In this document: positions 4,869-49,920 of the stretch, piece by piece | Layout of the letters: each line of letters begins with the position of its first letter | Numbering within the stretch: position 1 is the first letter of the stretch | From: Candidatus Adlerbacteria bacterium | GTDB lineage: Bacteria; Patescibacteriota; Minisyncoccia; Phycocordibacterales; SBAW01 | DNA length: 55,545 nucleotides | NCBI GenBank assembly: GCA_963796795.1 | Contig: CAWCNA010000006.1 | Location: forward strand, 1-55,545 | Direction of reading: 5' to 3' | Made by a program: the position numbers and the translations under genes | The notes under the pieces: model-generated | The model's input: the letters and a program-made list of their open reading frames with translations, nothing else | What the model was told of the DNA's origin: nothing | Database searches by the model: none

Positions 4869-5828
4869 ATGGTAAGAACCGGCACAGATGTTGAGGATGC
4901 CGGAGCGAAACTTCTCCGCGGTTCGTTAGAACCGATCGGAAAGTTTTGCGCAGGCTTTATCTTATTGTTTTGGGCTGTGCCTGCTTTTGCATCCATTGGG
5001 TATACATCTCCGGGGAATCCTGCAGGATATGTTACTGATTTTGCAAAAGTATTGAGTGCAAACGAAATACAAAGTATAGATGCAGAATTGCAACAGTTTG
5101 AAGCATCTACTTCAAACCAAATTGCAGTTGTGACCGTGCCGGACATGAATGGGGATTATATAGAAGACTACGCGCCGAAATTGTTTGCACAGTGGGGCAT
5201 TGGTCAAAAAAGCAAAGATAACGGGGTACTTTTACTGCTTTCGATTCAAGAACATTCTATTCGTATTGAAGTTGGCTATGGCTTGGAAGGCGCGCTGCCC
5301 GACAGCGTTGCGCAAAGTATCATCAATACTGATCTCACGCCAAATTTAAAAGCGGGGAACTATGACGCGGGTGTTACTGCTGCTGTCAGCGACATTATGC
5401 TCGCAACACAGAATGAATATACGGGAACAGGTTCGACTAGTTCCAATTCCGACAACAATCTAGGTTCTGTTATAGGTTACGGATTCTTTTTTGGATTTAT
5501 CGCGCTGCAGTGGTTGGCTGCCATTTTGGCGCGGAGCAAAAGTTGGTGGGCGGGCGGCATCGTTGGTGCGGTTATTGGGTTTGGTGTCTGGGGATTTTTT
5601 GGCTTCGTAATACTTTGGGGGGTTCTGGCAGTCGCGGGCCTCACCGGCCTCGGGCTTTTATTTGATTGGTATGTTTCAAAACATTACAACGCAGCAAAAG
5701 CGAACGGCACGCGCATGCCATGGTGGATAGGCGGAGGCGGTTTTGGTGGCCGAGGTGGTGGGGGCGGAGGTTTCGGCGGGTTTGGCGGCGGGATGTCGGG
5801 TGGAGGTGGCGCTTCCGGCGGCTGGTAG
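4869..5828 (+). CDS. TPM-domain protein (YgcG-like) with Gly-rich C-terminus
   Basis: YVTDFAKVL, WGIGQKSKDNGVLLL, RIEVGYGLEGALPD, GGGMSGGGGASGGW; usual partner of lemA. Confidence 0.9.
   Translation: MVRTGTDVEDAGAKLLRGSLEPIGKFCAGFILLFWAVPAFASIGYTSPGNPAGYVTDFAKVLSANEIQSIDAELQQFEASTSNQIAVVTVPDMNGDYIEDYAPKLFAQWGIGQKSKDNGVLLLLSIQEHSIRIEVGYGLEGALPDSVAQSIINTDLTPNLKAGNYDAGVTAAVSDIMLATQNEYTGTGSTSSNSDNNLGSVIGYGFFFGFIALQWLAAILARSKSWWAGGIVGAVIGFGVWGFFGFVILWGVLAVAGLTGLGLLFDWYVSKHYNAAKANGTRMPWWIGGGGFGGRGGGGGGFGGFGGGMSGGGGASGGW
4896..4958 (+). repeat. Intragenic palindromic element, copy A
   Basis: GATGCC GGA GCGAAACTT-(inner hairpin)-AAGTTTTGC GCA GGCTTT. Confidence 0.8.
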
Positions 5829-5853
5829 AAAAGAATTTGTTATACTGAAGTAT

Positions 5854-6528
5854 ATGTGGAAAATTATTCTAGGAGTTATCGTGGCAATTATTGTTGTAGG
5901 AGGAGGGTACTGGTTTTTAAAAGGCAGTAATGTTGAGCCTGCGCAGAGTTCTGCTTCCCTCGGCCAAAGCACGGCCACGGGCGAGGCGGCATCCTCAACT
6001 TTAGTAACATCTACGCCAAACACTACTAATTCAACTAATACAAATATGACAGCGACACTTAAAACAAACATGGGCAGCATTACTGTCGAGTTCTATCCCG
6101 ACCAAGCTCCAAAAACAGTGGCGAATTTTATCAAGCTGGCACAGTCTGGGTACTACGACGGCACAAAATTCCATCGCGTAATTCAGGGCTTTATGGACCA
6201 AGGCGGCGATCCGCTTACAAAGGACGACTCACAGAAAGCAGCATGGGGCACCGGCGGCCCGGGATACACTATCCCCGACGAATTTGGCACAACGTATACA
6301 AACGTCGCAGGTACTCTTGCAATGGCAAACACCGGCCAGCCGAATTCCGGCGGCAGCCAGTTTTTTATCAACGCGGTTGACAATCATTTCCTAGACGGTA
6401 AATACACAGTGTTCGGTAAAGTTACTTCTGGCATGAATGTTGTCACGGCAATCAACAATGTGCCTGTCGACTCGAGCGACCGCCCCCTCTCGCCAGTTGT
6501 CTTGATAAGTGTTACGGTGAGCCAGTAG
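5854..6528 (+). CDS. Cyclophilin-type peptidyl-prolyl isomerase with N-terminal membrane anchor
   Basis: APKTVANF, FHRVIQGFMDQGGDP, LAMANTG.PNSGGSQFFI, LDGKYTVFGKV. Confidence 0.93.
   Translation: MWKIILGVIVAIIVVGGGYWFLKGSNVEPAQSSASLGQSTATGEAASSTLVTSTPNTTNSTNTNMTATLKTNMGSITVEFYPDQAPKTVANFIKLAQSGYYDGTKFHRVIQGFMDQGGDPLTKDDSQKAAWGTGGPGYTIPDEFGTTYTNVAGTLAMANTGQPNSGGSQFFINAVDNHFLDGKYTVFGKVTSGMNVVTAINNVPVDSSDRPLSPVVLISVTVSQ
5936..5993 (-). repeat. Intragenic palindromic element, copy B, with nested 30-bp module
   Basis: Minus strand GATGCC[GCCTCGCCCGTGGCCGTGCTTTGGCCGAGG]GAA GCAG AACT CTGC GCA GGCT. Confidence 0.75.
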
Positions 6529-7265
6529 TGACTCAAACTAAAATCTATATCTATGGCAGGCACGCACTTCGCGCGGCCTTGCAAAACACCCCACGTGCTG
6601 TACGCCGCGTATATTTTTCGCGCGATATGCCAGACCAAAAACTCCGCCAGCTTGCCAAACAAAGCGGTGCATCGGTCGAGCTGCTCGATAGCCGCAAGGC
6701 AACGTCGTGGGTAGAAGGGAATGCGCCACACCAAGGCGCCATCGCCCTTATTTCTTTGAGTGACATTCTCGTACCATATGAGAAATTTGTTGAAACCCTT
6801 GTCGTTGATAAAAACACATCACTTGTGCTTCTAAACGAGGTACAGGATCCAAACAACGTTGGTGCGGTTATCCGCTCAGCAGCAGCGCTTGGAGCACGTG
6901 CGGTATTAATGCCAGGTGTGCGTCAAGCTCCGGTGACTTCGGCAGTTATTAAAGCGTCGGCTGGCATGGCGTTTACCTTGCCGCTTGTATCACTCGATAA
7001 TATCCAGCAAGTCGTATCTGATTTAAAAAAGCGCGGCTTCCGTGCATATGGGTTGTCTGGAGATGCACAATACTCACTCACAGCCGAGACGTTTGATGCA
7101 CCTTCTCTGTTTATATTAGGAAATGAAGCAAAAGGTTTGCCGCTTAAGACATCTCAAATTTGTGACCGCGTGCTTTCAATACCGATGGACCAAAAAGTTG
7201 AATCGCTCAACGTTGCAGCCTCGGCTGCAATTGCACTCTACGCATGGCGCACGAAGCATCTCTAA
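6528..7265 (+). CDS. rlmB: SpoU/TrmH-family RNA 2'-O-methyltransferase, RlmB-like
   Basis: IYGRHA, HQG, QDPNNVGAVIRSA, ILGNEAKG, ESLNVAASA. Confidence 0.8.
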   Translation: MTQTKIYIYGRHALRAALQNTPRAVRRVYFSRDMPDQKLRQLAKQSGASVELLDSRKATSWVEGNAPHQGAIALISLSDILVPYEKFVETLVVDKNTSLVLLNEVQDPNNVGAVIRSAAALGARAVLMPGVRQAPVTSAVIKASAGMAFTLPLVSLDNIQQVVSDLKKRGFRAYGLSGDAQYSLTAETFDAPSLFILGNEAKGLPLKTSQICDRVLSIPMDQKVESLNVAASAAIALYAWRTKHL

Positions 7266-7922
7266 AACTTCTCAAACGCGACAAGCGTTTTACTGCGCTT
7301 ATCAAAGCGCATGGCGCCCCGCAATTAAATCGTGGGATGAAACCGTTCCAGTCGCTGGTGCGCTCTATTATTTACCAACAAGTGTCGGGCAAAGCTGCGG
7401 CTACTATTCTGGGGCGGTTTGAAGCTCTATTTTCTGGTACTAAATTTCCAACTCCAGAAGATGTACTTGCAATGCCGCTACAAAAAATGCGCGAGGCGGG
7501 GCTTTCGTCTCAGAAAATCTTCGTATATAAAAGACTTGGCTGAGAAATTTGTAGATGGAACTGTAGGGCAGACAAAATTTAAGAAGATGAGTAACGAGGA
7601 AGTGATAGCTCACGTCACTGCTGTAAAGGGTATTGGAGTATGGACAGCACATATGTTTTTGATATTTACGCTCGAGCGTTTGGACGTACTTCCAACGGGC
7701 GATTTAGGAATTCAAAAAGGATTTCAAGTATTGTTTAATTTAAAAAAACTCCCCACTCCCGCACAGATGGAAAAATTAGCAGCACCGTGGCGCGAGCATG
7801 CCTCAGTCGCATCGTGGTATTTGTGGCGTGCAGCAGATGCGGCAAAATTAATTCCAAAGCCTCGCCCGTCGGACGGACACGGCCGAGGGAAAAAGCTTTC
7901 AAAAAAGGCAAAAATACGGTAG
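7244..7922 (+). CDS. alkA: DNA-3-methyladenine glycosylase II (AlkA/HhH-GPD); frameshift near 7515
   Basis: SIIYQQVSGKAA in the first ORF; KGIGVWTAHMFLIF, LPTGDLG and SWYLW in the second. Confidence 0.85.
7859..7888 (+). repeat. Free-standing 30-bp palindromic module in the alkA C-terminal tail
   Basis: GCCTCGCCCGT-CGGACGGACAC-GGCCGAGG has the same arms as the module nested in copy B. Confidence 0.7.
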
Positions 7923-7931
7923 GTTAGAACG

Positions 7932-9407
7932 ATGGCTAAGGGCGAAACTATAGTTCGGTTCGAGGACGTGTCATTTGATTTCGGTCCTAAAAAGAAAATC
8001 CTCGACGAGGTTTCTTTTAATGTACGCAAAGGTGCAAAGATCACGTTGATGGGCCAGAACGGTGCAGGGAAGACCACCCTTTTTAAATTACTCACAGGCG
8101 AACATGTGCCGGAGCAGGGAGTTATTAATGTTGATGAGGGCACAAGCGTTGCAACATCGCGCCAGGTAATCCCGCGTCCTGATTTAGAGTTGAATGTTCG
8201 TGATTTTTTCCAAAAATCGTTCTCTAAAAAGATGTACGATATCGACCCGCGCATTGACAAAGTGCTCGAAGCAGTAAACTTGGTTGCCGACCACGATAAA
8301 ATTGTAAAAACATTTTCAGGCGGCCAACAGGCGCGCCTCTTGCTTGCTTCGGCGCTTATACAAAATCCAGACATGCTCTTGCTGGACGAGCCGACAAACA
8401 ACTTAGATAAAGCTGGTATCGCACATCTGACCAAATTTTTGCAGGAATACACCAAGACGGTTGTTGTCATTTCCCACGACGCTGAATTTTTGAATTCATT
8501 TACGCAAGGCGTTCTCTACTTAGACGTGCATACTCACAAGGTTGAACAGTATGTCGGTAACTATTTTGACGTGGTGAAGGAAATTTCAGCACGTATTGAG
8601 AAGGAAAATCGCGCCAATGCCTTGCTCGCAAAGCAAATACAGGACAATAAAGACAAGGCAAACTTTTTTGCCAACAAGGGAGGCCAGATGCGTATGGTCG
8701 CAAAGCGCATGCGCGAAAAGGCAGAAGAGCTTGAAGAAGAAATTGTTGATGTCCGCAAAGAGGATAGGACTATCAGTGCTTTTACTATTCCTTCACAGCC
8801 TGACTTGATAGGAGATATTTTAACTATCACGTCGTTTTCCACTATAAAAAATCATAAGGAGACAAAACGGAAGGCTGATATAAAACTTAAAAAAAACCAG
8901 CACCTGTTGCTTGCTGGCCCCAACGGTATTGGTAAAAGCACACTGCTCGAATCTATCGTTAACAGTTCTACTTCGCCAGAGGCTTCGAAGAACAAGCACG
9001 GTATTTCAATATTGGAAGGTACTCGTGTTGGATATTACCGCCAAGACTTTTCAAACTTAGATTTCGATAAAACAGTGTTTGAAGAGTTGGGTGCTGTTAT
9101 GGAGCGCTTGATAGAAGAAGATTTGCGCAAAACAGCAGCACGTTTTTTGATAACGGGTGAATTAGTACATACAAAGATTGGTAATTTGTCAGAAGGACAG
9201 AAAGGGCTTGTCGCATTTGCGCGCTTGGTACTTTTGCGCCCAGGGCTTTTGATATTGGACGAGCCAACAAACCACATAAACTTCCGCCACTTGCCGGTCA
9301 TTGCAGAGGCTTTGAGCAAATACGAAGGTGCAATGATACTTGTGAGCCACGTGCCCGATTTTGTCTCGCAGATCCGCATCGACGAAAAACTCGATTTGGA
9401 GAAATAA
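7932..9407 (+). CDS. ABC-F family ATPase
   Basis: Two ABC domains (GQNGAGKT, GPNGIGKS; LLLDEPTNNLD, LILDEPTNH) and no TM segments. Confidence 0.93.
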   Translation: MAKGETIVRFEDVSFDFGPKKKILDEVSFNVRKGAKITLMGQNGAGKTTLFKLLTGEHVPEQGVINVDEGTSVATSRQVIPRPDLELNVRDFFQKSFSKKMYDIDPRIDKVLEAVNLVADHDKIVKTFSGGQQARLLLASALIQNPDMLLLDEPTNNLDKAGIAHLTKFLQEYTKTVVVISHDAEFLNSFTQGVLYLDVHTHKVEQYVGNYFDVVKEISARIEKENRANALLAKQIQDNKDKANFFANKGGQMRMVAKRMREKAEELEEEIVDVRKEDRTISAFTIPSQPDLIGDILTITSFSTIKNHKETKRKADIKLKKNQHLLLAGPNGIGKSTLLESIVNSSTSPEASKNKHGISILEGTRVGYYRQDFSNLDFDKTVFEELGAVMERLIEEDLRKTAARFLITGELVHTKIGNLSEGQKGLVAFARLVLLRPGLLILDEPTNHINFRHLPVIAEALSKYEGAMILVSHVPDFVSQIRIDEKLDLEK

Positions 9408-9408
9408 A

Positions 9409-10668
9409 TTATTTTTCTGCGGCGTGAGTGCCAGCCACGTGGCCGGTGGTCCAACAGAGTTGCAGGCTGTAGCCGCCTGAGGGCCTGTCTATATTTAAAA
9501 TATCGCCCACGAGGTAGAGGTTAGGGAAGAGGCGCGACTGCATTGTTTTAAAATCAACTTCTTTTAAATCAACTCCGCCTGAAGTAATAACCGCTTTTTC
9601 CATACCAAGCAATTTCTCAACGCGCATTGATGCGTGTTTAATAGCTTTAACAAGCATAATGCGTACTTCGCGGGTAACACTGTTGCATGGAGTTTCGCCA
9701 TCGATGCCAGCTGCTTCAAGAAGTACAGGAGCAACTGCCGAGGGAAGCAAGTCGCTCAAACTATTTTTGAGTTTCTTCTTATCGTTTGCTGTAAAAATTT
9801 CTTGGAGCTTGGTGTTGAGAGTGTCGTAGGCTAACGTGGGGCAAAAATCTATTTCAATATCTACATCGCCGTATTTGAGCAGCTCGCCAATGTCGCGGCT
9901 CATGTTTAAAATAGTTGGTCCACTCAGGCCAACGTGCGTAAAAAGTATCTTTCCTATTTTTGAATCTTGTTTTGTATCATTTTGAAATACGCTTATCTTT
10001 ACATCCGGCACTGTGACACCCGCAAGCTTCTTGACCCAATCGTGTTTTATTACCAAGGGAACTAACGCTGCGTTTGTACCAAGCACATTGTGGCCGATTT
10101 CTTTGAGCCATTCGTAGCCGTCGCCGGTTGAGCCGGTTTCGGGGCGCGACTTGCCACCGGTCGCCAAAATAAATTTCTTCGCGAAAACCTCCTTCTTATT
10201 TTTGAGTGTTATCGAAACAACCTCGCCATTTTCTGTATGGAGTGATGTGGCAGGGGAATTAGAAAGAATAGTAACGTTATTCTTTTTTAAATCTTTAACG
10301 AGCACATCCCACACCGACTGCGCAGTGTTGCTAGCAGGGAAGACACGCATAAGCGTTTCTTCTTTTGTGTCCATCCCACGTGTATGAAAAAACTCTAAAG
10401 TATCTTTTGTGCTCCACTGCGAGAATGCAGAGAATAAAAACTTGTCACTATCTTTAAATTTGGAAAGCAGTTTCCGAACGTCTTCTTCGGCATTGCAGAC
10501 GTTACAGCGCCCGCCGCCGGTTATAAGGAGTTTTTTGCCCAATGATTCTTTTTTTTCTATAAGTATGACATTTGAGCCTAATTCAGCTGCGCGAGCAGCC
10601 CCCATCATCCCGGCAGGGCCGCCGCCGATGACACACACGTCCCACACTGTATCTTCCGCGCCTTTCAT
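9409..10668 (-). CDS. HI0933/BaiN/YhiN-family flavoprotein
   Basis: IGGGPAG, GKKLLITGGGRCN, TGSTGDGY, LFTHVGLSGP, TSGGV, GGYSLQ. Confidence 0.92.
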   Translation of the reverse strand: MKGAEDTVWDVCVIGGGPAGMMGAARAAELGSNVILIEKKESLGKKLLITGGGRCNVCNAEEDVRKLLSKFKDSDKFLFSAFSQWSTKDTLEFFHTRGMDTKEETLMRVFPASNTAQSVWDVLVKDLKKNNVTILSNSPATSLHTENGEVVSITLKNKKEVFAKKFILATGGKSRPETGSTGDGYEWLKEIGHNVLGTNAALVPLVIKHDWVKKLAGVTVPDVKISVFQNDTKQDSKIGKILFTHVGLSGPTILNMSRDIGELLKYGDVDIEIDFCPTLAYDTLNTKLQEIFTANDKKKLKNSLSDLLPSAVAPVLLEAAGIDGETPCNSVTREVRIMLVKAIKHASMRVEKLLGMEKAVITSGGVDLKEVDFKTMQSRLFPNLYLVGDILNIDRPSGGYSLQLCWTTGHVAGTHAAEK

Positions 10669-10713
10669 CAGCGCATGCTAGCACGGCAGAAGGGAACTTT
10701 ATATACTGTTTCT

Positions 10714-11004
10714 ATGCATCTACAAATTCCACACAATATGTCACAAACGCAGGCCATAAATAAAGTTAAAGGAACTCTCGAGGCTGGGCGCTCACAAATG
10801 GCTGGGCAGGTGGATATTGAAAAAGAAGAGTGGGAGGGAAACAAACTTACGTTCGCATTTACTGCTCAAAAACAGCACATTGAAGGCACTCTCGTTGCAG
10901 ATGAAAAAGAATTTATAGTTGACGCCAAACTCCCGCTTATGCTCCGCATGTTCGAAGGCAAAATTGAGAAGATGTTGGGCGAGCAGGTTAAAACCCTCCT
11001 CTAA
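10714..11004 (+). CDS. Small protein similar to the polyhydroxyalkanoic acid system family
   Basis: IPH...A...W.GNKLTF...G....V.AKLP.ML..FEGKIE pattern. Confidence 0.65.
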   Translation: MHLQIPHNMSQTQAINKVKGTLEAGRSQMAGQVDIEKEEWEGNKLTFAFTAQKQHIEGTLVADEKEFIVDAKLPLMLRMFEGKIEKMLGEQVKTLL

Positions 11005-11028
11005 AAGCCCAAATGCTATACTAGAGGC

Positions 11029-11781
11029 ATGATATACCTGATTCTGGCGCTGGTCGTTATTTTTTTATTTTTGTCACTGCGCATTGTTAAAGAGTATGAT
11101 CGCGGAGTTATATTTTTCCTCGGCAAAGTAACGGGTGTTCGCGGCCCAGGGATGATCATTCTTATACCGCTGTTTGAGATGATGACCAAGGTTACACTTC
11201 GGACTATCACGATGAACATTCCGTCACAGAAGATAATCACGAAAGACAACGTCTCTATTGATATTGCGGCAGTTGCGTACTACCACATAACCGACCCGTT
11301 GAAATCTGTCATCAGTATTGAAAACGTATACAACGCAGTAAACCAAATTAGCCAGACTACCGTTCGAAATGTTGTCGGGCAGTTTACGCTCGACCAATTG
11401 CTTTCGCAGACTGCCGATATTAATACACAGATTAAAGAAGTTATTGATACTCATACCGAGCCGTGGGGCGCGCAAGTTACAGCTGTTGAAATAAAAGACA
11501 TCACATTGCCTGACAACATGCAGCGCGCCATGGCAAAAGAGGCCGAGGCAGAACGCGAGCGCCGTGCAAAAATTGTTGCGGCGGAAGGCGAGTTCCAAGC
11601 AGCAGTTAAATTGGGCGAAGCTGCTGACATCATCAGCAAGCATCCGGTTGCGCTGCAATTGCGTACGCTCCAAACTATGGCCGAAATCAGCGTTGAGAAA
11701 AACTCCACCATTATTTTCCCTGCGCAATTTATGACGACGGTGCAGGAAGCGATAAAGATGATCAAGGGCGACAACGCATAA
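11029..11781 (+). CDS. SPFH/band-7 (stomatin/slipin) protein
   Basis: [41 protein letters not shown]. Confidence 0.93.
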
Positions 11782-11785
11782 CGAT

Positions 11786-12553: not shown

Positions 12554-12557
12554 ATAT

Positions 12558-13325
12558 ATGAATAAACAATTTATAAAACCAATCCCGTCAGTTTCTGAAG
12601 CGTTCGGGACGTTGCTGCGTGCCGATTTCCGCGTACAGTGGCGCCAGCGCCGTTCGCTCATCATGAGCCTTATTGTGCCGGTTATTTTTTTAGTCTCATG
12701 GAAGTCACTTATTCCAACAATTGGCGCCCCAGCAGTGCTTTCAATTTGTATGGCCGTGGGTTTGCCAGCTGTAGGACTTATGGGCTACTCGCTGACTATT
12801 GCGCGTGATAGGGAACGAGGTATCTTCCAGCGTTTGCGCGCGGCACCGGTGCCGACGTGGATCATTATGTCGAGCCGCCTCATCGTGCAGCTTGCCGTTA
12901 TTGCCCTGACAGCACTCGTTACTATCGCCGTTGCAGAAACTGTCGATAAAATTTCTATCGCCCCGCTCAATGTTGTTTTGCTTCTCATCGCATCACTCAT
13001 TGGCGGTATGTCGTTTTTAGCACTGGGGCAGTTTATCGTTGCGTTTATCCAAAGTTCTGAAGCGGTGAACTCCGCTGCACGCCTTATTTATTTTCCGATA
13101 GCGATCGTTGGTGCGCTCGGTTCAATTGGCTTGTTTGGAAAAACTGTAGAGAATATAGTCCAGTGGTCGCCGCTTGGCACGACAAAAGTACTGCTTGTTG
13201 CAGCAATGGAACCATCGACTATTTTTACCCATGAGGTGATGTTTGCTTTGGCAGTAACGCTCGGCTATGGGCTAGTTTTTGCCGGCATCGGCATTCGCTA
13301 TTTCAAGTGGACAGGGAAGAACTAA
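12558..13325 (+). CDS. ABC-2 type exporter permease
   Basis: About six TM segments, RERGIFQRLRAAP motif, directly after the ATPase. Confidence 0.88.
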   Translation: MNKQFIKPIPSVSEAFGTLLRADFRVQWRQRRSLIMSLIVPVIFLVSWKSLIPTIGAPAVLSICMAVGLPAVGLMGYSLTIARDRERGIFQRLRAAPVPTWIIMSSRLIVQLAVIALTALVTIAVAETVDKISIAPLNVVLLLIASLIGGMSFLALGQFIVAFIQSSEAVNSAARLIYFPIAIVGALGSIGLFGKTVENIVQWSPLGTTKVLLVAAMEPSTIFTHEVMFALAVTLGYGLVFAGIGIRYFKWTGKN

Positions 13326-13395
13326 GGTAATTGCAAAAAGCCATTTTTCTGGTATTCTATTGAATAAGTGCGGGAACAGCCCGCCTTTTTAAATT

Positions 13396-15201: not shown

Positions 15202-15218
15202 TTTGGTATACTAAAAAT

Positions 15219-16688: not shown

Positions 16689-16689
16689 T

Positions 16690-17379: not shown

Positions 17380-17382
17380 AAA

Positions 17383-18841: not shown

Positions 18842-18865
18842 TACGGCTATTGTATACTGAATTAT

Positions 18866-23180: not shown

Positions 23181-23966
23181 TTATTTTGTTAGCCCTAAAA
23201 ATCCGCTCGTCATCGTTGCGATGCCGTTCCTATCTATTGAGTATGCCTCAAAACCACTCAGGGATTCAATGAACTGTATGCCTCTCGTGCCCATGGCAAA
23301 CGCAGCAGTGGCAAAGCGATCGGCTTCTAATACGTCGGGCCCCACAACAGTGATACTTTTTACTTCATCCAATGCTTCTTCGGGTACAAGGGGATTGTAG
23401 ATGTGATTCCTGCGTTCATAACTCCCTGAGGTTGCAACACCTTTTCCACGGGGATAGATAACTTTTACAATTTCATCTAGTTTAAACGGGTTACGTATAC
23501 CAACACTCCATTCACCCCCCTCAGAATTTTTTCCAGATGTTTGTATATCACCACCCGCCTCTACATAGAAATTATGTGAGCCGCAGTGGACGAGAAGATC
23601 AGCGGCGTTTTTTATAGCCCAACCTTTTACTATTCCTGACGGGTCAATACTTCCGTCTGGTTTTTCAATATCAAAATAGCCACGTGTTTCTTGTTTTGTT
23701 TTTTCAGCAAGATCAAAAACTTCCCACATATCTCCGCTGATGCCGAAGCGAAGCTGGCCTAACGAGGCTTTAGCCGAGACAGAGGCTTCGCGCAGGCTTT
23801 CACTTCTGTTGATCTTCGATATTTCGCTCGTTTCTTTATACGTGCTGAACCGTTCATCAACTTTTGTGAAATAGGCAAAAACCCCATCAAGTATGTTTGA
23901 TGAGGTCTCCGTTTCGACAACCTCGACAGTGATGGGCATACCCATTATCAGCCGAGTGTCCTTCAT
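23181..23966 (-). CDS. apbE: FAD:protein FMN transferase ApbE
   Basis: FSTYKETSEISKIN, DPSGIVKGWA, EAGGD, VATSGSYER..HIYNP, ADRFATA. Confidence 0.9.
   Translation of the reverse strand: MKDTRLIMGMPITVEVVETETSSNILDGVFAYFTKVDERFSTYKETSEISKINRSESLREASVSAKASLGQLRFGISGDMWEVFDLAEKTKQETRGYFDIEKPDGSIDPSGIVKGWAIKNAADLLVHCGSHNFYVEAGGDIQTSGKNSEGGEWSVGIRNPFKLDEIVKVIYPRGKGVATSGSYERRNHIYNPLVPEEALDEVKSITVVGPDVLEADRFATAAFAMGTRGIQFIESLSGFEAYSIDRNGIATMTSGFLGLTK
23739..23800 (+). repeat. Intragenic palindromic element, copy C
   Basis: GATGCC GAA GCGAAGCT-(inner)-GGCTTCGC GCA GGCTTT, read as part of SESLREASVSAKASLGQLRFGIS in ApbE. Confidence 0.8.
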
Positions 23967-23973
23967 ACGTTTG

Positions 23974-24447
23974 TTAGTTTTGTGCTGCTGCAAGTGCTAC
24001 TCCAAGTGATTGCTGGAAGCCTTGACTATCCTGGGTTGCACCTGAAATAACGTTAACCTTTGCACTTTGTGTCGTAATAGCTTCCTGTATAAGAACAGGG
24101 AAAGCTGATGCGGCAATCTCATTAGTGTTTCCAGGACCTTGGGGTTTTTGCAGCATCTGTATTGATGCTATCTTGCCGCCAGAAACGGTAACGCCGACCT
24201 GTACTTGGCCATATGGAGCTGCATCCCCAACGCTACCTGTATAGGTGCCATCTTTATACGAACTACTCGTAGTAGTCGTTGTTGTCGTAGTAGTAGTCGT
24301 GGTTGTGCTGGCTGTATCTGTTGGTACACCCGTTTGGTCAGTTGTCACCGGTGTTGCTGGTGCTACTGTCTGCGACCTTGAGGCGCTCCACAATGCGTAC
24401 CCGCCCAATAAAACTACAACGATGCCGCTCACGATAAATTTCTTCAT
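23974..24447 (-). CDS. Membrane-anchored FMN-binding (flavinylated) protein
   Basis: N-terminal TM, poly-Thr linker, YKDGTYTG, ISGAT flavinylation motif. Confidence 0.88.
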   Translation of the reverse strand: MKKFIVSGIVVVLLGGYALWSASRSQTVAPATPVTTDQTGVPTDTASTTTTTTTTTTTTTSSSYKDGTYTGSVGDAAPYGQVQVGVTVSGGKIASIQMLQKPQGPGNTNEIAASAFPVLIQEAITTQSAKVNVISGATQDSQGFQQSLGVALAAAQN

Positions 24448-33996: not shown

Positions 33997-35717
<1,721 letters not shown>

Positions 35718-35740
35718 GCACATTTTGTTATAGTGTTTTG

Positions 35741-37817: not shown

Positions 37818-37871
37818 CTAAGCTCTGTCACCACCCCTTATGGGATTACCCTGGGGATGTTCAGCGTCTAT

Positions 37872-40456: not shown

Positions 40457-40465
40457 GCTACGGAT

Positions 40466-41695: not shown

Positions 41696-41709
41696 GTTAG
41701 AATATATAC

Positions 41710-42720: not shown

Positions 42721-43049
42721 GTAAATTAAGCGAGAAAAAGTGTATCCCGTGCGAAGGGGATATCATGCCGATGAGCAAAAAAGAGGCCGAGACCATGATG
42801 CCAGAGATCAACGACTGGTCGCTCGTCGACGAAGGGCGCATGATTGCAAAAGGCTTTATGTTTCCAAACTTCAAGAAAACAATGGAGTTTGTAAACAAAG
42901 TTGCCGATATCGCCGAAGAGCAAGGACATCATCCGGACCTCACTGTTTCGTACGGCAATGTTGGGGTAGAATTGATGACGCACGCAATTGAAGGGTTGTC
43001 GGAAAACGATTTCATTCTTGCAGCCAAAATCGATGAGTTGAAACTTTAG
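42717..43049 (+). CDS. phhB: Pterin-4-alpha-carbinolamine dehydratase
   Basis: CIPCEG, AEEQGHHPD, THAIEGLSENDFILAAKID. Confidence 0.9.
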   Translation: MSKLSEKKCIPCEGDIMPMSKKEAETMMPEINDWSLVDEGRMIAKGFMFPNFKKTMEFVNKVADIAEEQGHHPDLTVSYGNVGVELMTHAIEGLSENDFILAAKIDELKL

Positions 43050-43084
43050 AATAAATTCATCTGTCTAAATGCTATACTTGAAGC

Positions 43085-43303
43085 ATGGAAAAGAAATACA
43101 GCGAAGGCGAATTTCAAGAACTGGTATTGGACCAATTTAAATCGGTACATACAGAGTTAAAGATAATAAAGACTGATATTGGTGAAATGAAGGACGTGCT
43201 TTATCCGCTTGCGAAGGCCTTTGATATAGACTCCGAAAAACTTATAGACCACAACAAACGGATAGTTCGTGTTGAAAAACACTTAGGGTTTAAAAGCGCA
43301 TAA
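43085..43303 (+). CDS. Small coiled-coil hypothetical protein
   Basis: 72 aa ORF with TG-N-TATACT 6 nt upstream; HNKRIVRVE tail. Confidence 0.65.
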   Translation: MEKKYSEGEFQELVLDQFKSVHTELKIIKTDIGEMKDVLYPLAKAFDIDSEKLIDHNKRIVRVEKHLGFKSA

Positions 43304-43344
43304 AGTCTAGCCTTTCTCTTTTAGATATCGTATTATGGTCTCGC

Positions 43345-43406
43345 GGGCCCTTTCAGCCAGAGGCTGATCCGCCTTTGGCGGAAGCTCATAAAATTTGGTA
43401 GAGCGC
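43345..43406 (+). repeat. Duplicated 5' fragment (nt 1-27) of tRNA-Ala interrupted by two tandem 15-bp palindromes
   Basis: GGGCCCTT[TCAGCCAGAGGCTGA TCCGCCTTTGGCGGA]AGCTCAT[AAAAT]TTGGTAGAGCGC versus tRNA GGGCCCTTAGCTCATTTGGTAGAGCGC. Confidence 0.85.
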
Positions 43407-43407
43407 G

Positions 43408-43659
43408 ATGCACTACGTATACGTACTCAAAAGCGAACGTAACGATAAAAGATACGTTGGCTACACAGGAAAGACCCCAGAGGTTCGTCTAATCGAACAC
43501 AACCGAGGTTCGAGTTCTTACACAAGCAGAAATATTCCTTTTAAACTTCTGTATAGTGAAAGTTTTGAAAACAAAACTGAAGCATTGCAAAAAGAGAAGT
43601 TTTTAAAGTCTGGTCAGGGAAGGAAGTTTCTTGATACAATCATAAACGAGGGCCCTTAG
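43408..43659 (+). CDS. Stand-alone GIY-YIG endonuclease (83 aa)
   Basis: YVYVL...YVGYT...RL.EHN.G...YT....P..L.Y.E......A..KE..LKSG.GR. Confidence 0.9.
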   Translation: MHYVYVLKSERNDKRYVGYTGKTPEVRLIEHNRGSSSYTSRNIPFKLLYSESFENKTEALQKEKFLKSGQGRKFLDTIINEGP

Positions 43660-43725
43660 CTCATTTGGTAGAGCGCCTCATTTGCAATGAGGAGGCGACC
43701 GGTTCGATCCCGGTAGGGTCCACCA
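43650..43725 (+). tRNA. tRNA-Ala(UGC)
   Basis: GGGCCCT/AGGGTCC acceptor with G3:U70, anticodon loop TT-TGC-AA, GGTTCGATCCC, CCA. Confidence 0.96.
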
Positions 43726-43734
43726 AGCGCAAAC

Positions 43735-43758
43735 AATCTCCCCGACGGGAGATTTTTG
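43735..43758 (+). terminator. Terminator after tRNA-Ala
   Basis: AATCTCCC-CGAC-GGGAGATT-TTT. Confidence 0.7.
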
Positions 43759-43779
43759 CTTTGGTGGAAGGCACAGCGA

Positions 43780-44227
43780 TGTTTTGCACTGGCAAATGCT
43801 GGCTGTAAAATCGTCGACCACGCCAACGATATTATCCATCGGGTGGTCTGTGCGTCGGCGCCGATGGAGATTGACCTTGCAGTTCGCTCGGTCGAGGATC
43901 TCTGCCTTTTTCGACGGTGCCGATTTCCAGACTATCTGTGCTCGCGCTCTCAAGCAGGGTTTGGAACTCTGTCCTGCAGAGGTGGGACCAGCCTTGCGTC
44001 TTGCTTACGACGGCCCTGGTGAAGGTGCACATGATTCTCCGTTAGTCATCGCCATGGCCGGACGTGGGACCCTTGCAGCTGCAAGTGACGAACGTTTTAT
44101 TTTTTCGTTGGCCCGCGACGATCAGTCCAAGTGGCTAAGTTGCGTTGATGGCAGCCCTCAACATTATTGGGAACCTCAAAATTGGGCTAACGTCCTTTGC
44201 TTTGTCTTCGTGAAGCCTCGGAAGTAA
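43780..44227 (+). pseudogene. 5'-truncated, frameshifted hypothetical protein (GLELCPAEVGP motif)
   Basis: FALANAGCKIVDHANDI...EIDLAVRSVEDL in one frame continues as GADFQTICARALKQGLELCPAEVGPALRLAY...FVFVKPRK in another; no clean start. Confidence 0.55.
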
Positions 44228-44250
44228 TACCCAGGCTTCACATCAATTTC

Positions 44251-44283
44251 GACCTCGCGTCCCAACGTGAGGTCTTTCTTTTT
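44251..44283 (+). terminator. Intrinsic terminator
   Basis: GACCTCGCG-TCCCAA-CGTGAGGTC followed by TTTCTTTTT. Confidence 0.65.
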
Positions 44284-44393
44284 CCAAAAGTTTAATACCC
44301 CTATGGTGTACCTTATGATTAGATATTTCTATACACCGCCAAGCGCTTTCCAATCTAGATACTATGCGTTTTTATAGATGATAGAATTACAGT

Positions 44394-44702
44394 ATGAATC
44401 TAGAAGAATCTAAAAGAGAAGCACCTAAACAAGCTTTTAATACCGAAGCATTTGAGGCAGAGGTAACTATATTAAAAAAAGAGATAGCAGAGAGATACGC
44501 AGCTATGGGTACATTAGATCAAATAGGAACTGATTTTGAAGATGGGTTTGCCACACTTAAAGAAGTCGAAACTCTGGTAGAAAAACTAGGAAAATTTATT
44601 GGAGATAAGGCCGCTGAAGAATATTTTAACCAAGAAGTTGTCGGGAGCCCTCTAAAAAATGGGCAAGAAATAATAGAAACTAAAGAAAAAGGCCTACAAT
44701 AA
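44394..44702 (+). CDS. Acidic hypothetical protein
   Basis: 102 aa AT-rich ORF with TG-N-TAGAAT 6 nt upstream. Confidence 0.6.
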   Translation: MNLEESKREAPKQAFNTEAFEAEVTILKKEIAERYAAMGTLDQIGTDFEDGFATLKEVETLVEKLGKFIGDKAAEEYFNQEVVGSPLKNGQEIIETKEKGLQ

Positions 44703-44747
44703 AAGAGTTCAAATTTTATGCTACCATTTCTGAATCGGAACCTTTTT

Positions 44748-44818
44748 CGGGGTGTTGTATAGTGGTATTACATACGCTTCGGGTGCGTAAAACCCGAGTT
44801 CGATTCTCGGCACCCCGA
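44748..44818 (+). tRNA. tRNA-Pro(CGG)
   Basis: CGGGGTG/CACCCCG acceptor, TACGC-TTCGGGT-GCGTA anticodon arm, CCGAG-TTCGATT-CTCGG T-arm; atypical D-arm, no encoded CCA. Confidence 0.88.
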
Positions 44819-44887
44819 CAAAGTTTCTGAAAGTAGCACAATTTTCATACTATACTTACCCCCAGATTTGTCCTTGGGGAGATGCAC

Positions 44888-45052
44888 ATGCGCCGGATTC
44901 TTCTCGCGCTACTTGTCTTTATAATTTTACTTTTACTTACAGGGTGCCCAGATTTCTATCGAGTACCTGGATGCCCTGTATATTTTCTTGGAATACACGT
45001 CGCTGATCGGGATTACTTGAACTGCACTCCCGGCCACAGACCTCCTCGCTGA
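44888..45052 (+). CDS. Small putative lipoprotein (54 aa), absent from the ORF track
   Basis: MRRILLALLVFIILLLLTGCPDFYRVPGCPVYFLG...; LTGC lipobox; GGGGAG SD upstream. Confidence 0.6.
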   Translation: MRRILLALLVFIILLLLTGCPDFYRVPGCPVYFLGIHVADRDYLNCTPGHRPPR

Positions 45053-45071
45053 TGTACGTCGAAGGAGGGCT

Positions 45072-45554
45072 TTATTTTTTAACTGTTGTAGAAATGCTTC
45101 CACTCAATGCTGAAAGGGAAGTAAGGGTTGCTTCAAGATGCGACGTAATAGCAGAGTCACTTGGAAGCGTTGCAACAACAGTTGCTATATGCGTTTCGAA
45201 ATTTTGTGTGACTTGAAGTGCATCTGCCGTGTCATCTTGTGCAACTAATGTTTGAATATTTTTAATCACAAGAGAGGTGTCTATATCAAACACGTTTATA
45301 AGCTGGACTTCCAGGGTTGATGTGAGCGTATTGTTTTGAAACAATGCTTGGAGTTCGCCCAAACGGTTCTCGGCTATATCTTCTGAAGATTCTGCTTTTT
45401 GGTTATTTGTAAACGCAAGCAATGTACCTATTTTTTCTGTTACATCTATTTTAAACAGATATAAAGCGTTACCTGGAAGTGCATTAAGCGAAGCGCTGGT
45501 AAGAATACCCGCCAGAGATGCAATAAGAAGGAGAGAGATAATGATTTTTGACAT
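45072..45554 (-). CDS. DUF5667-like exported helical protein
   Basis: Signal/TM followed by ALPGNALY.FKI...EK...K......AE.RL.E. Confidence 0.65.
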   Translation of the reverse strand: MSKIIISLLLIASLAGILTSASLNALPGNALYLFKIDVTEKIGTLLAFTNNQKAESSEDIAENRLGELQALFQNNTLTSTLEVQLINVFDIDTSLVIKNIQTLVAQDDTADALQVTQNFETHIATVVATLPSDSAITSHLEATLTSLSALSGSISTTVKK

Positions 45555-45608
45555 ACGAAAGTTACCTTTTCTCTAAACTACCCTTATGCTATCATGTAAA
45601 ATAACGGT

Positions 45609-46620
<1,012 letters not shown>

Positions 46621-46666
46621 TTCATAGATAGAAAGTTTACTCGAGCTAAATTGTAATAAATAAATA

Positions 46667-47110
46667 ATGGGACAAGTTTTTGCGGCATTCGGCGTTGATT
46701 GGAGGCTTCTCCTGATCAACTTAATTAACTTCGGCATTTTGTTGCTGGCGTTGTGGTATTTCCTCTACGCTCCGCTGATGAAGATGCTGGAAAGCCGTCG
46801 CGAAAAAATTGCCCAAGGCGTTGTTGATGCCGAAAACGCAAACGCACGCCTCAACGAAATTGAAGGCGCTCGCGCTGGAATGCTTTCGGATGCGGGCAAA
46901 GAGGCGGACAAGTTAGTAGCTGATGCGCGCAGTACTGCAAACACGAAGGGAAAAGAAATTGTTACTTCAGCCGAAACTGCCGCATCCAATGTGTTGAAGA
47001 GCGCAGAGGCCCAGGCAAATGAAATGAAGGCGCAGGCAATTGCCGAAAGCAAGCAGGAGGTCGCAAAGCTCATCGTGCTTGGTATGGACGCTCTAGCGAA
47101 GCAAAAATAA
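46667..47110 (+). CDS. atpF: F0F1 ATP synthase subunit b
   Basis: INFGILL..L..FLY.PL..ML..RR..I followed by a coiled coil. Confidence 0.92.
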   Translation: MGQVFAAFGVDWRLLLINLINFGILLLALWYFLYAPLMKMLESRREKIAQGVVDAENANARLNEIEGARAGMLSDAGKEADKLVADARSTANTKGKEIVTSAETAASNVLKSAEAQANEMKAQAIAESKQEVAKLIVLGMDALAKQK

Positions 47111-47111
47111 A

Positions 47112-47375
47112 ATGAACACCGCTTCCTATTACGCACGTGCACTATTTGCGCTTATAGAAGAGAGTCCCCGCAAGGCGGCGACCTATCTGCATAATTTAGA
47201 TGGAGTGCTCAAAACGAGAGGGCATCAAAAACTTCTTCCTAAAATCTTTAGCGAATATCAAAAGCTGCAGATCACAAAAGAACGAACAGAACGCCATAAG
47301 GAAATAACACCAGAGCAAGAGAGAACGCGGGTACTGCTGGAGCTCTACAGGAAACTAACTGCAAGCCGCGCCTAA
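47112..47375 (+). CDS. atpH: Short ATP synthase delta-like subunit
   Basis: YARALF motif and position between atpF and atpA; only 87 aa. Confidence 0.65.
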   Translation: MNTASYYARALFALIEESPRKAATYLHNLDGVLKTRGHQKLLPKIFSEYQKLQITKERTERHKEITPEQERTRVLLELYRKLTASRA

Positions 47376-47380
47376 ATTAT

Positions 47381-48944
47381 ATGAACAACTTCATCGAACA
47401 ATTTAAAAAAGAAATAGAAAACTTCCAGCCAACGGCACGCTCGGCAAATTCGGGCGTGGTTATCCGTGTCGGCGACGGCGTGGCGGAGGTGGAGGGGCTG
47501 CCGAACGCGGTGATGTCGGAAATGGTCCGTTTTAATACTGCTGGTAAAAAATCTCTCGAAAAGGCAATTGAGGCGCCTGAAGTGTACGGCCTCGTGCTTA
47601 ACCTCGAGGAAGAGTCGGTTCGCGTCATTATTTTAGGTGATGCCAACCTTATCTCTGAAGGAATGAGTGTCGAATCAACAGGTGCAGTACTTTCTATCCC
47701 TGTTGGCGATGAACTTCTCGGCCGTGTTGTCTCGCCGCTTGGCGAAGCTGTTGACGGATTAGGTGAAATAAAAACTGCGCAGCGCAACTCTATCGAGCGC
47801 GAGGCATATGGCGTGATGGACCGCCAGAGCGTTAACCAGCCATTACACACCGGTATCAAGGCCATCGACTCAATGATCCCGATAGGTCGCGGACAGCGCG
47901 AGCTTATCATCGGCGACCGCTACACCGGTAAAACAACTGTTGCTATCGATACAATTTTGAATCAGAAAGTCCGAGGCAAAAGAAACTCGCCCGATCTGTA
48001 TCTACGTTTCTATCGGCCAAAAAGAATCTAAGACCGCGCGCTTGGTACAGATGTTGCGCGAGCGCGGCGCACTCGAATACACCATTGTTGTTGACGCAGG
48101 TGCGTCGGCACCGGCAGCGCTCCAGTACTTGGCACCATTTGCGGGCGCTGCTATTGGCGAGTACTTCATGGACAAAGGTCAGGATGCACTGATTATCTAT
48201 GATGACCTTTCAAAACACGCCGTTGCATACCGTGAACTTTCACTCTTGCTCCGCCGCCCACCGGGCCGCGAGGCATATCCAGGCGACGTCTTCTACCTGC
48301 ACTCACGTTTGCTCGAGCGCGCAGCAAAACTCTCAAAAGAAAAAGGTGGCGGTTCATTGACCGCACTTCCAATTATCGAAACGCAGGAAGGCGACGTTTC
48401 TGGATACATCCCAACAAACGTTATTTCTATTACTGACGGCCAGATCTTCCTCGAAACTGAATTGTTCAACAAGGGTATGCGACCAGCTATCAACGCAGGC
48501 ATTTCCGTGTCGCGCGTCGGTTCATCCGCACAGACAAAGGCAATGAAGAAGGTGTCGGGCCGCATCAAGCTTGAGCTTGCACAGTTCCGCGAACTTGAGG
48601 CCTTTATGCAATTTTCGCAGGACTTGGATGCTGACACCAAGCGCCGCATCGATGCCGGCCAGCGCATGATGGCGATTTTGCGTCAGAAGAACAGCGCCCC
48701 GATACCGTTCGAGCGCCAGGCAGTTATCATCTATGTCGCGGTCAATGGTTATCTTGGTAAAACTCCGGTTGGCCGTGTACCAGAATTTGAAGAGAAATTT
48801 TTCTCATTCCTTGATTCGAATGCAAAGAACTTGCTTCCAAGCATCGAGAAGGCGCGTGAGATTACTGCAGAACACGAAGAACAATTGAAGACAGCTTTTT
48901 CGAAGTTTGAAGAATCGCACAAAGATCTCTTCACGGCTGAGTAG
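47381..48944 (+). CDS. atpA: ATP synthase subunit alpha; frameshift near 47970
   Basis: [44 protein letters not shown]. Confidence 0.95.
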
Positions 48945-48962
48945 GGAGAGTAAAAATCAAAA

Positions 48963-49920
48963 ATGGCAGGGCTTAAACAAATAAAATCACAAATCCGCTC
49001 GTACGAAAAAACCCAGACCGTCACCAAAGCGATGGAGGCGGTTTCGGCTGCGAAAATGCGCAAAGCTCAAGTCCAAGCACTGGGTGGCAGGCCGTATGCG
49101 CAAGCTGCAGTTTCTATCTTGGCGCGCGTTGCAGGAACAAGGGATGGCTCGATAATGCTAAAGCCTGCGCAAAGCCTCTCGACCGCGCTTTCGCACGGCG
49201 AGGCCGGCTCTGCTTCGGCATCACGAGCTTTATATGTAGTTATAACTAGCGACAAGGGCCTGGCGGGAGCTCTGAATAGTTCGGTTCTGCGTGCTGTAAT
49301 GGCGGATATTAAATTACAGAATCTTTCTGTAGAAGATGTTTCTATTATTGCGATAGGAAAGAAGGCGAACGATTTTTTCACCTCACGCGGATTTAAAGTA
49401 GAAGCATTCCATCAAAACAATGACAAGGTCTCGGCAGATATGATCGAAGAAATCGTTCGCGAAGCTGCAAACCGTTTTAGTATGGGAGAAGTTGGCGTAG
49501 TAAAAGTAGCGTTCCAGAACTTTATTTCAACGCTTGAACAAAAGCCGGCACTCTACACAATGTTTCCGCTATCTCTTGAAGAATTCTCAAAAGTTGTTGA
49601 TGGCATTACGCCGTCCCGTGGCACATTTGCAGCAAGAAAAAGAGCCTATTGTTTCTCCGGCAAGCTACAGCGTCGAACCATCTGACGGTGTGGTACTGCG
49701 GGCCTTAATGCCAAAGCTGGCAGCGATATTCGTATACCATGCGCTGCTCGAGTCACAAGCGTCGGAGCACTCGGCGCGCATGGTGTCGATGAAGTCGGCG
49801 TCGGACAAGGCAGGCGAGATGGAGCACGGGCTGACATTAAAGTTTAACAAAGCACGGCAGGCAGCGATTACACGCGAAGTGTCAGAAATTATTGGGGGCA
49901 TGGAAGCAATGACGAATTAA
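48963..49920 (+). CDS. atpG: ATP synthase subunit gamma; frameshift near 49630
   Basis: VTKAMEAVSAAK, TSDKGLAG, ASEHSARM, NKARQAAITRE. Confidence 0.93.
49160..49222 (-). repeat. Intragenic palindromic element, copy D
   Basis: Minus strand GATGCC GAA GCAGAGCC-(inner hairpin, GAAA loop)-GGCTTTGC GCA GGCTTT. Confidence 0.8.

Follow-up and report, generated by a model that had tools for sequence, protein, structure and literature searches.

The closest described class to the elements treated here is that of the repetitive extragenic palindromes (REPs) tagged with CGTC or TGTC, including the Rickettsia elements RPE-4 and RPE-6, as far as the available part of PMC3733652 describes them. CGTC-tagged REPs, among them RPE-4 and RPE-6 of Rickettsia conorii, are given there as units of 20-40 bp with an 8-9-bp stem, A/T in the first two positions, a 4-5-nt loop and a CCA tail (Di Nocera et al., 2013; PMC3733652); the CGTC tag is unpaired and often changed to TGTC, and a CCTC variant is allowed. 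Rickettsia palindromic elements (RPEs) of the RPE-1 type are ~150 bp long and each encode a conserved peptide, and MITEs (miniature transposable elements that have inverted repeats), with Correia, ERIC and Nezha as examples, combine terminal inverted repeats derived from insertion sequences (ISs) with target-site duplications (both from the portion of PMC10969869 that treats them). In mitochondrial genes of Nematomorpha, long perfect inverted repeats of up to 284 bp have both arms coding, according to the available excerpt of PMC6649704. Here, we describe the GATGCC hairpin family, which resides in frame in genes of Candidatus Adlerbacteria and is represented by four copies (A to D) in a 55,545-nt stretch of DNA from one such bacterium (GenBank assembly GCA_963796795.1, contig CAWCNA010000006.1, positions 1 to 55,545; 'the window').

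This is a real, well-structured and clade-restricted family of coding hairpin repeats of the REP/RPE kind. Its unusual features are an architecture with a GNA/GNA loop, strict strand specificity, subtypes that cross species and the recurrent re-use of protein loops with switches of subtype or orientation. An earlier note on the window had proposed a strand-specific hairpin family in frame in unrelated proteins, and this proposal is supported by further copies, a fold on one strand and empty sites. The same note knew of no catalogued counterpart, and none was found here: an Rfam scan of the window at gathering thresholds returned three tRNAs only, and in E-value mode copy D had no match at E<=10 and copy A had two chance-level matches (E 1.3 and 6.1), far under gathering scores. 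A literature search, which did not extend to subscription journals or supplements, returned no description joining the candidate phyla radiation (CPR), Patescibacteria, Parcubacteria or Adlerbacteria with such elements. The limit to one clade of eight species, the discrete subtypes, the re-use of sites with switches and the replacement of target bases without duplication go beyond that note.

Copies, fold and distribution of the family

Two covariance models were used: R1, seeded with five copies, and R2, a broader model seeded by 81 matches. The copy set consists of 81 model matches in loci fetched from eight genomes, and pairing statistics refer to its 80 distinct copies. The genus was represented by 80 genomes, in which the family was called at E<=1e-5; the source genome of the window (G000; 610 kb, 66% complete) is one of the carriers. 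R1 is blind to some variants, as a copy in TopA of genome G091 was recovered only by R2 with filters off, and a long variant of ~95 nt in apbE of G022 was matched by neither model. Family counts are therefore minima.

Hairpin copies were confirmed at all four positions, with cores at or near the coordinates claimed for them (Table 1). The earlier note had ascribed one motif, GATGCC-GRA followed by a stem and closed by GCA-GGCT, to all four. It holds for A, C and D, which have these canonical ends, whereas B shares the ends only, with no GRA and a rearranged core. At the base of the fold in A, C and D, a 3-bp helix (P1, GCC/GGC) leads into a symmetric 3x3 loop in which GAA or GGA faces GCA. The stem above it begins with 8-10 bp of helix, is interrupted by a small bulge or asymmetric loop, continues for another 3-4 bp, passes a bulge of 1-2 nt and ends in a 6-bp helix closed by a 3-4-nt loop. 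The element measures ~61 nt, or ~75 nt with its 5' extension.

Table 1. Positions of the hairpin copies in the window and of the genes that hold them
Feature	Extent	Core	Strand	Match	Remarks
Copy A, alpha subtype	4885..4959	4896-4956	+	R1, E 2.2e-19	Sense to TPM gene
Copy B, divergent/rearranged member at best	5930..5999	5936-5993	-		Antisense to cyclophilin gene, in linker between membrane anchor and domain
Copy C	23736..23801	23739-23798	+	R1, E 6.3e-15	Antisense to apbE
Copy D, beta subtype	49159..49225	49162-49222	-	R1, E 5.6e-17	Antisense to atpG
Host of A: TPM-domain protein	4869..5828		+	PF04536, E 1e-44	aa 55-177
Host of B: membrane-anchored cyclophilin-type peptidyl-prolyl isomerase	5854..6528		+	PF00160, E 9.7e-56	aa 68-222
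Host of C: ApbE-family protein	23181..23993		-	PF02424, E 7.9e-40	Match in two stretches
Host of D: ATP synthase gamma subunit	48963..49920		+	PF00231, E 1.7e-43

Copy A runs from the 5' extension CAGATGTT-GAG through GGCT-TTA and encodes residues 10-30 of the TPM protein, ahead of and into a signal-peptide-like hydrophobic stretch. Copy C encodes SLREASVSAKASLGQLRFGI, in a minority reading frame, and copy D encodes LKPAQSLSTALSHGEAGSASA, in the main antisense frame. The earlier reading of A as sense and of B, C and D as antisense was correct, as was the statement that C and D are translated in different frames, and conservation follows base pairing, not codons. Copy B keeps both ends (GATGCCG ... 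CTGCGCAGGCT) and, as had been reported, has 13 nt in common with A (GTTGAGGATGCCG), which belong to the conserved 5' extension. It has GCC in place of GRA and a branched core with two small hairpins instead of the canonical hairpin, and its flanks form an outer helix (GTTGAG/CTCAAC); the fold of its own strand has an energy of -31.8 kcal/mol (z -2.25). It was not matched by R1 at E<=10 in the search of the G000 genome, and R2 gave a partial match only (5933-5970, E 0.28). Copy B is at best a rearranged member of the family.

The covariation claimed for the stem extends to the whole copy set. Paired positions hold a standard pair in 92.8% of cells, against 77.7 +/- 0.6% in 500 shuffles (0/500 reaching the observed value) and 28-50% with slid partners; the first figure is somewhat inflated by an alignment fitted to the model structure, and the slid controls and the strand bias are independent of that. 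Double-sided changes occur at 16 of the 18 pairs (206 cells), and the basal 3-bp helix also covaries (GUC/GAC in the TopA copy of G034, AUC/GAU in the apbE variant of G022). On the GATGCC strand the pair cells comprise 1212 Watson-Crick, 78 G.U and 8 A.C pairs, so that wobble pairs read as G.T on this strand, as the four copies had suggested. Because orientation is set by the asymmetric ends and not by the wobble pairs, the G.U excess is genuine evidence for a single-strand fold. The own strand is also more stable than the complement in 76 of 81 copies (means -31.1 versus -27.3 kcal/mol).

The internal loop is GNA opposite GNA throughout the copies, and would form two sheared G.A pairs around a variable mismatch. 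Sheared G.A motifs of the GNA/GNA type are stable in RNA and in DNA. The ends are imperfect inverted repeats (GCC-GNA-GCAGA / TCTGC-GNA-GGC), the whole element being a hairpin. Upstream of GnnGATGCC many copies extend with conserved cAG(a/c)TGT(c/t), and 20 of the 81 have an NGTY tag at -4..-1 relative to the start of the model (TGTC 12, TGTT 6, CGTC 2; background 2.8%); the consensus 3' of GGC is T, C/T, T/A (CTC or TTA). The flanks of eleven alpha copies were compared and are unrelated outside the element, with no longer element of the same ends seen among them. Most copies are single. In seven pairs the copies lie within 200 nt of each other, and six of these pairs are head-to-head; the two members of one pair share a 9-nt spacer.

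Further copies were found far above background in G000 and in seven other genomes of the genus. A pattern search of G000 gave two copies besides A to D, on contigs C9 and C11; R1 found eight copies in this genome (E 2e-19 to 1.2e-4), and R2 found the same eight at E<=2e-8 plus two at E<=2.3e-4. At the genus threshold the carriers are G000 (6 copies), G022 (22), G034 (10), G070 (14), G071 (3), G074 (10), G080 (4) and G091 (5), and single-genome searches gave up to 27 copies in G022 and 15 each in G034 and G070. The family was not found in the other 72 of the 80 genomes at this threshold, in 150 genomes drawn from the rest of the order and covering 131 genera (zero matches at E<=1e-6) or in 24 genomes of other families from an earlier draw (zero matches). 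A scan of a collection of genome contigs with a pattern that proved too loose returned 120 stretches, which were single matches in unrelated, mostly high-GC genomes and, by our estimate, about as many as chance would give.

We read the eight carrier genomes as one clade within the genus. G091, G070, G080, G074 and G022 are the only genomes with a one-piece match to the TopA of G034 (83-95% identity); G000 matches in three broken pieces, and for G071 no match was obtained. The remaining genomes listed with a TopA match are aligned piecewise, with G034 residues ~390-448 omitted. Separately, it was observed that TopA of the carrier clade holds a segment of ~59 aa at these residues, acidic and then SDFVTY.L.FG, and that the hairpin lies within it. 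The segment is absent from G095, the one outside genome whose sequence was inspected (TopA loci L220-L226 versus L227-L249).

Related AtpG proteins bear the source names Candidatus Adlerbacteria and Paceibacterota, which places the organism in the CPR. One public soil DNA run contained 7% of the sequence words, and no RNA run was listed as containing them. The soil run yielded several short contigs identical to the window, including one over copy B (window 5922-6072), so the organism or a very near strain was present in that sample at low depth. A phage-like contig from IMG/VR (L287, with terminase large subunit and portal genes) has at 12833-12911 (-) one 73-nt stretch with both element ends, which lies inside an ORF of 198 aa. 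It folds no better than shuffles (z -0.52) and hints at most that phages of these bacteria might carry the element.

Sites in genes, empty alleles and re-use of loops

Seventy-two of the 81 copies lie in open reading frames (ORFs) of >=100 aa, 47 antisense and 25 sense. Of these, 60 are internal (40 antisense, 20 sense), eight are within 25 aa of the ORF start and four within 25 aa of the ORF end; the other nine copies lie outside such ORFs. The hosts include AtpG, TopA, ApbE, the cyclophilin and the TPM protein, and a further host is presumed to be SecA-like from a motif in its sequence. Each of the six frames is stop-free in 53-68 of the 81 copies, yet usage is concentrated: 39 of 73 ORF-embedded copies are read in one antisense frame, with peptides like (E/K)PAQN.S.GS.EP..SASAS, and the sense frames account for 19 (MPKQ...AQA) and eight (DAEAEPAS...) of the 73, while Arg/Cys/Leu-rich frames are seldom used. 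This use of frames fits a filter at the protein level, and the excess of antisense copies may owe something also to the complement folding less strongly in mRNA. In a predicted structure of ApbE, helices 57-72 and 87-102 flank the insert and confidence drops locally, although the model (four sequences, mean pLDDT 63.6) is too weak to map the loop.

Comparison with orthologues showed sites without the segment for A, C and D, as the earlier note had expected of insertions, but not for B. The AtpG loop between ARVSG.. and ALYIVITSDKG is short in 15 of 26 aligned genomes of the genus, including the clade members G022 and G034. Among AtpG relatives from a protein collection (P0002-P0008), the nearest (P0002, 87% identical) has 12 aa where G000 has 26, and P0004-P0007 are likewise empty. 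With these relatives empty, copy D is an insertion in the G000 lineage. The element accounts for 21 aa while the loop has gained only 14 aa net, so that ~7 aa of the AtpG loop were replaced. Judged from peptides, as were all element subtypes in this collection, the same loop holds an apparent delta copy in antisense in P0008 and an apparent alpha copy in sense in P0003; it has been hit at least three times by the GATGCC hairpin family.

The apbE site is empty in G032. In G034 (L210 2053-2071, -) it holds a remnant of ~24 nt in which the two ends are joined (5' extension, GATGCC, GGA and GGCC-TTA), sense-oriented where copy C is antisense, and in G022 it holds the ~95-nt variant, which has the same architecture and folds at -41.0 kcal/mol on its own strand versus -28.9 kcal/mol on the complement. 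No copy was detectable at the TPM site in G022 and G034; in G071 and G080 the start ATGGTGAG is followed immediately by an alpha copy, in the orientation opposite to copy A. In either orientation the element supplies N-terminal residues ahead of the signal-peptide-like hydrophobic stretch. The cyclophilin linker is ~19 aa shorter in G034 and of the same length in G022, where no element was detectable; an equal length without the element makes copy B a weak case.

The TopA loop (SDFVTY.L.FG, 9 aa, FFF.ANGSRV) measures 90 nt and is empty in G070, G080, G074 and G022. It is filled in G034 (123 nt, +33; gamma, sense), in G000 (132 nt, +42; alpha, antisense; copy F, on contig C11) and in G091 (144 nt, +54; delta, antisense). 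All three gains are multiples of three and all are below the length of the element, so target codons were lost. The sister genomes G080 and G071 each have one copy that the other lacks, and one empty allele of G071 retains GGGCCT..TCTGCT and looks like an internal deletion of a former copy. A target duplication, raised as a possibility in the earlier note, was not seen in these filled/empty comparisons (TopA; G080/G071), and target bases were lost instead.

Five subtypes, alpha to epsilon, were labelled by motif. They number 29 (alpha), 15 (beta), 12 (gamma), three (delta) and six (epsilon) among the 81 copies, with 16 others. All eight clear copies of G000 are at sites occupied also in at least one other genome or relative, and one site in a protein of ~730 aa holds epsilon in sense (G000), alpha in sense (G074), beta in antisense (G022), gamma in antisense (G080) and delta in antisense (G091). 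At sites with a switched subtype the elements are 34-57% identical and the flanks 83-87%; gradual change in place cannot convert discrete subtypes, and copies must have been replaced or newly inserted. In other orthologous pairs, of the same subtype, the copy is conserved above its flanks (97% versus 69-87%). Non-orthologous copies reach 93-100% identity across species, against 65-88% for orthologous DNA and flanks: L004 of G034 equals L005 of G022 over 61 nt (100%), copy D is 95% identical to the non-orthologous G022 copy L026, copy A is 95% identical to the G074 copy L250, and three species have one alpha core in identical form. Either the species share the sources of the subtypes or these sources are under strong constraint.

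Several further observations concern these sites. A 37-nt mini copy of G000 (C13:44278-44314, +) has P1, both loops and a 6-bp stem; a regular-expression scan of G000 for mini or solo remnants gave 16 matches versus 11 in a reversed-genome control, which is no excess. The atpG gene of the G000 assembly is in two overlapping frames (48963-49685 and 49534-49920), and its topA (contig C11 5409-7819; L002, L226) is in three pieces, with one frame shift ~35 nt upstream of the element and more stops downstream. These breaks do not fall at the hairpin elements; together with a completeness of 66%, they suggest either erroneous indels in the assembly or genuine decay of the genes.

The same AtpG loop also holds, in frame, a second and unrelated family of near-perfect hairpins of ~75-80 nt (L060, L064, L065, L067, L070 and L079, of G002, G019, G064, G027, G026 and G014, respectively). 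Its arms are wholly different between species yet paired, and its top (TTCYGCTGCAGGTC....GGGGACGCTGCAGAA) is conserved. A model of the six copies matched 19 of the 80 genomes, the highest number being 20 matches over both strands; there was no match in G000, and the second family is absent from the window. Its presence in the same loop implies that the in-frame hairpin phenomenon is general in the genus.

Probable movement of the hairpins and competing explanations

We consider that the family is probably a non-autonomous selfish hairpin of the REP/RPE kind, mobilised in trans and surviving in permissive loops, with its movement read from comparison. One strand, as single-stranded DNA (ssDNA) or RNA, would fold into P1 (GCC/GGC), the GNA/GNA loop and the long interrupted stem, and the folded strand would be recognised and propagated by machinery acting in trans. 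Subtypes alpha to epsilon would evolve under structural constraint and seed copies, which would enter without target duplication and replace a few target codons. Copies would survive if they keep the frame, if their position is a protein end or a loop that is disordered or at the surface, and if the frame in which they are read gives a hydrophilic peptide rich in Pro, Ala, Ser, Gly and Glu. Resident copies may later be swapped for other subtypes in either orientation, conceivably by recombination between the element ends, or may decay by internal deletion to remnants with joined ends. Palindrome instability predicts loss through deletion of the hairpin interior, and the remnants fit such deletion.

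Several points weigh against trans-mobilisation. The hallmarks of transposition are missing, with no target duplication and no defined target motif seen, and the alignment bias noted above favours pairing. Y1_Tnp (PF01797) was found in 51 of the 80 genomes of the genus but in only three of the eight carriers (G034, G070 and G071). It was not found in G000, G022, G074, G080 or G091, although G022 has the most copies (27) and is 97% complete; G000 is less complete, as stated above. RVT_1 (PF00078) was found only in G022 among five carriers searched. No element-like hairpin was seen beside the Y1 or RVT_1 genes, six fetched Y1 loci being covered. A Y1 transposase and a reverse transcriptase thus do not track the family. 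In the soil DNA run, at low depth, no joints or indels were seen at elements and no movement was observed. Copies conserved better than their flanks could mean selection on the copy itself. Finally, sites are re-used so often that random insertion followed by selection looks strained as an explanation; re-use at this level needs very few permissive sites, targeting, or replacement of residents. As a side observation, Y1_Tnp matches number up to nine per genome (for example L280-L285), many of them in open frames of ~180-320 aa whose match is confined to the C-terminal two thirds of the profile.

What makes replacement plausible is that the ends are near-palindromic (GCC-GNA-GCAGA / TCTGC-GNA-GGC), so that a donor strand could pair in either orientation with a remnant or with a copy already in place. 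We put forward, tentatively and with well under even confidence, that the hairpins are cassettes of a folded-single-strand replacement system that reloads a limited number of landing pads in permissive loops, the pads being marked by GCC-GNA-GGC ends. Genes for the recombination machinery could belong to the host or to a phage. If true, the hairpins would form a novel class of mobile coding element that steadily supplies new peptide loops to essential CPR proteins.

It is rather unlikely that the copies are REP-type elements moved as ssDNA by a Y1 (HUH) transposase of the REP-associated tyrosine transposase (RAYT) or IS200-IS605 kind, which inserts without target duplication and excises precisely. 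A fold confined to one strand, the absence of target duplication and the seamless or nearly seamless losses would all be expected of such an enzyme, and a Y1_Tnp gene, common in the genus, lies ~2 kb from a copy in G071. The TGTC-like 5' tag and the head-to-head doublets also match REPs as described in the available text of PMC3733652. However, five carriers, the nearly complete G022 among them, lack a detected Y1_Tnp, and the fetched Y1 loci are without a hairpin of the GATGCC family. The element moreover consists of one long and irregular hairpin, unlike the short stem of a REP or the paired end hairpins of the IS200 type, and target bases are removed on insertion.

Slightly less probable again is that the hairpins are structures useful to the host and kept locally by selection, either as sites for chromosome or RNA-processing proteins or as small antisense RNAs, with genomes made almost wholly of genes forcing them into an intragenic position. 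The structure lies on one strand whatever the orientation of the gene, some orthologous copies stand above their flanks (97% versus 69-87%, 90% versus 76-81%), the stem differences seen in the pair E/L022 are transitions that preserve pairing via G.U, and the alpha core is identical in three species, all of which such selection would produce. It would not readily produce the variation of presence, subtype and orientation between sister species, the many empty sites, a copy number of 4 to 27, decayed remnants or the lack of the family in 72 of 80 genomes of the genus.

An origin with no mobility at all is very improbable. Here the hairpins would be ancestral palindromes, inherited vertically and diverging in place, with arms kept matched by template-switch (quasipalindrome) correction or by compensatory substitution. 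Orthologous sites are indeed often occupied in several species, elements of 34-57% identity between flanks of 83-87% still fold, and the arms of the second family in AtpG are wholly different between species but perfectly paired. Against this, discrete subtypes turn up at unrelated loci, and across species, with 93-100% identity, and convergence of blocks of 37-61 nt is not plausible; AtpG is empty in outgroups and in the nearest relatives, and orientation differs at the same site. Arm-to-arm correction also predicts equal numbers of G.T and A.C pairs, and 78 and 8 were observed. Least credible of all is a module at the protein level, in which duplication would have spread a linker peptide under selection for its amino-acid sequence: the one frame used by 39 of 73 ORF-embedded copies ((E/K)PAQN..S..GS..SASAS) would suit it, but the same DNA is read in at least four combinations of frame and orientation to give unrelated peptides, nine copies lie outside ORFs and conservation tracks base pairing, not codons.

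Further candidates were rejected. Splicing as a mini-intron does not agree with the antisense position of most copies, with a 3x3 loop that is no bulge-helix-bulge or with net inserts that are multiples of three; a diversity-generating retroelement target and a CRISPR repeat were rejected on anatomy alone.

Relation to described repeat systems

In-frame palindromic repeats are not limited to Rickettsia-like cases, and very small, gene-dense genomes recurrently tolerate selfish DNA and gain protein loops from it, in ATP synthase gamma, topoisomerase I and the presumed SecA-like protein. The clade offers a tractable set (~80 copies with subtypes, empty sites, remnants and switching sites) for learning how REP/RPE-like hairpins without a transposase move, and the conserved GNA/GNA loop with its strand-specific fold is a handle for finding the protein that recognises them. 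In practice, the inserts can split domain matches, as in ApbE, and mislead alignments, gene calling and estimates of completeness from marker genes in CPR genomes.

Integron attC sites are recombination substrates that act as a folded single strand, with a conserved short helix at the base, an unpaired central spacer, another helix bearing extrahelical bases, a variable top and a conserved AAC/GTT core, and they lie between cassettes. The hairpins resemble attC sites in size and in the architecture of the folded strand. They differ in that the AAC/GTT core is absent and that they lie in frame in genes; no integrase was seen, and none was sought.

With the palindromes of Nematomorpha, as the excerpt of PMC6649704 presents them, the hairpins share translated inverted repeats in coding genes; they differ in being a dispersed multi-copy family with conserved ends. 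With bacterial MITEs, in the account available from PMC10969869, they share the character of short non-autonomous hairpin repeats, some of which lie in frame in ORFs. Unlike MITEs as portrayed there, they show no target duplication and no parent IS was found, and a G.U bias on one strand is unexpected if ends are recognised as double-stranded DNA.

The likeness to RPEs is closer. Both are inserted repeatedly and in frame in unrelated metabolic or essential genes of a reduced genome and supply peptide segments apparently compatible with the fold and function of the host protein (PMC10969869, in the part that covers RPEs). The hairpins are set apart, by description and not by sequence, in being 61-75 nt long, read in several frames and present in both orientations; switching of subtype or orientation at one site is not among the RPE features described in that part of PMC10969869.

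The closest agreement is with the CGTC-tagged REPs, so far as the available text of PMC3733652 goes. Both are multi-copy palindromes with intragenic units, several families per genome and no dedicated transposase, and in both head-to-head dimers predominate (6/7 close pairs here). A tag resembling theirs is enriched at one end of the hairpins, but only a quarter of the copies (20 of 81) have it. Where that text gives a simple stem, the Adlerbacteria element is a 55-nt interrupted hairpin with a GCC/GGC base, a 3x3 loop and ~20 more pairs in three bulged helices; where it gives a CCA tail, the tail here is CTC or TTA, and there are discrete subtypes (PMC3733652). CGTC-tagged REPs are described there as mainly intergenic, whereas the Adlerbacteria hairpins are mainly in genes (72/81), and they occur in CPR bacteria, outside the phyla that this source lists for CGTC-tagged REPs (PMC3733652).

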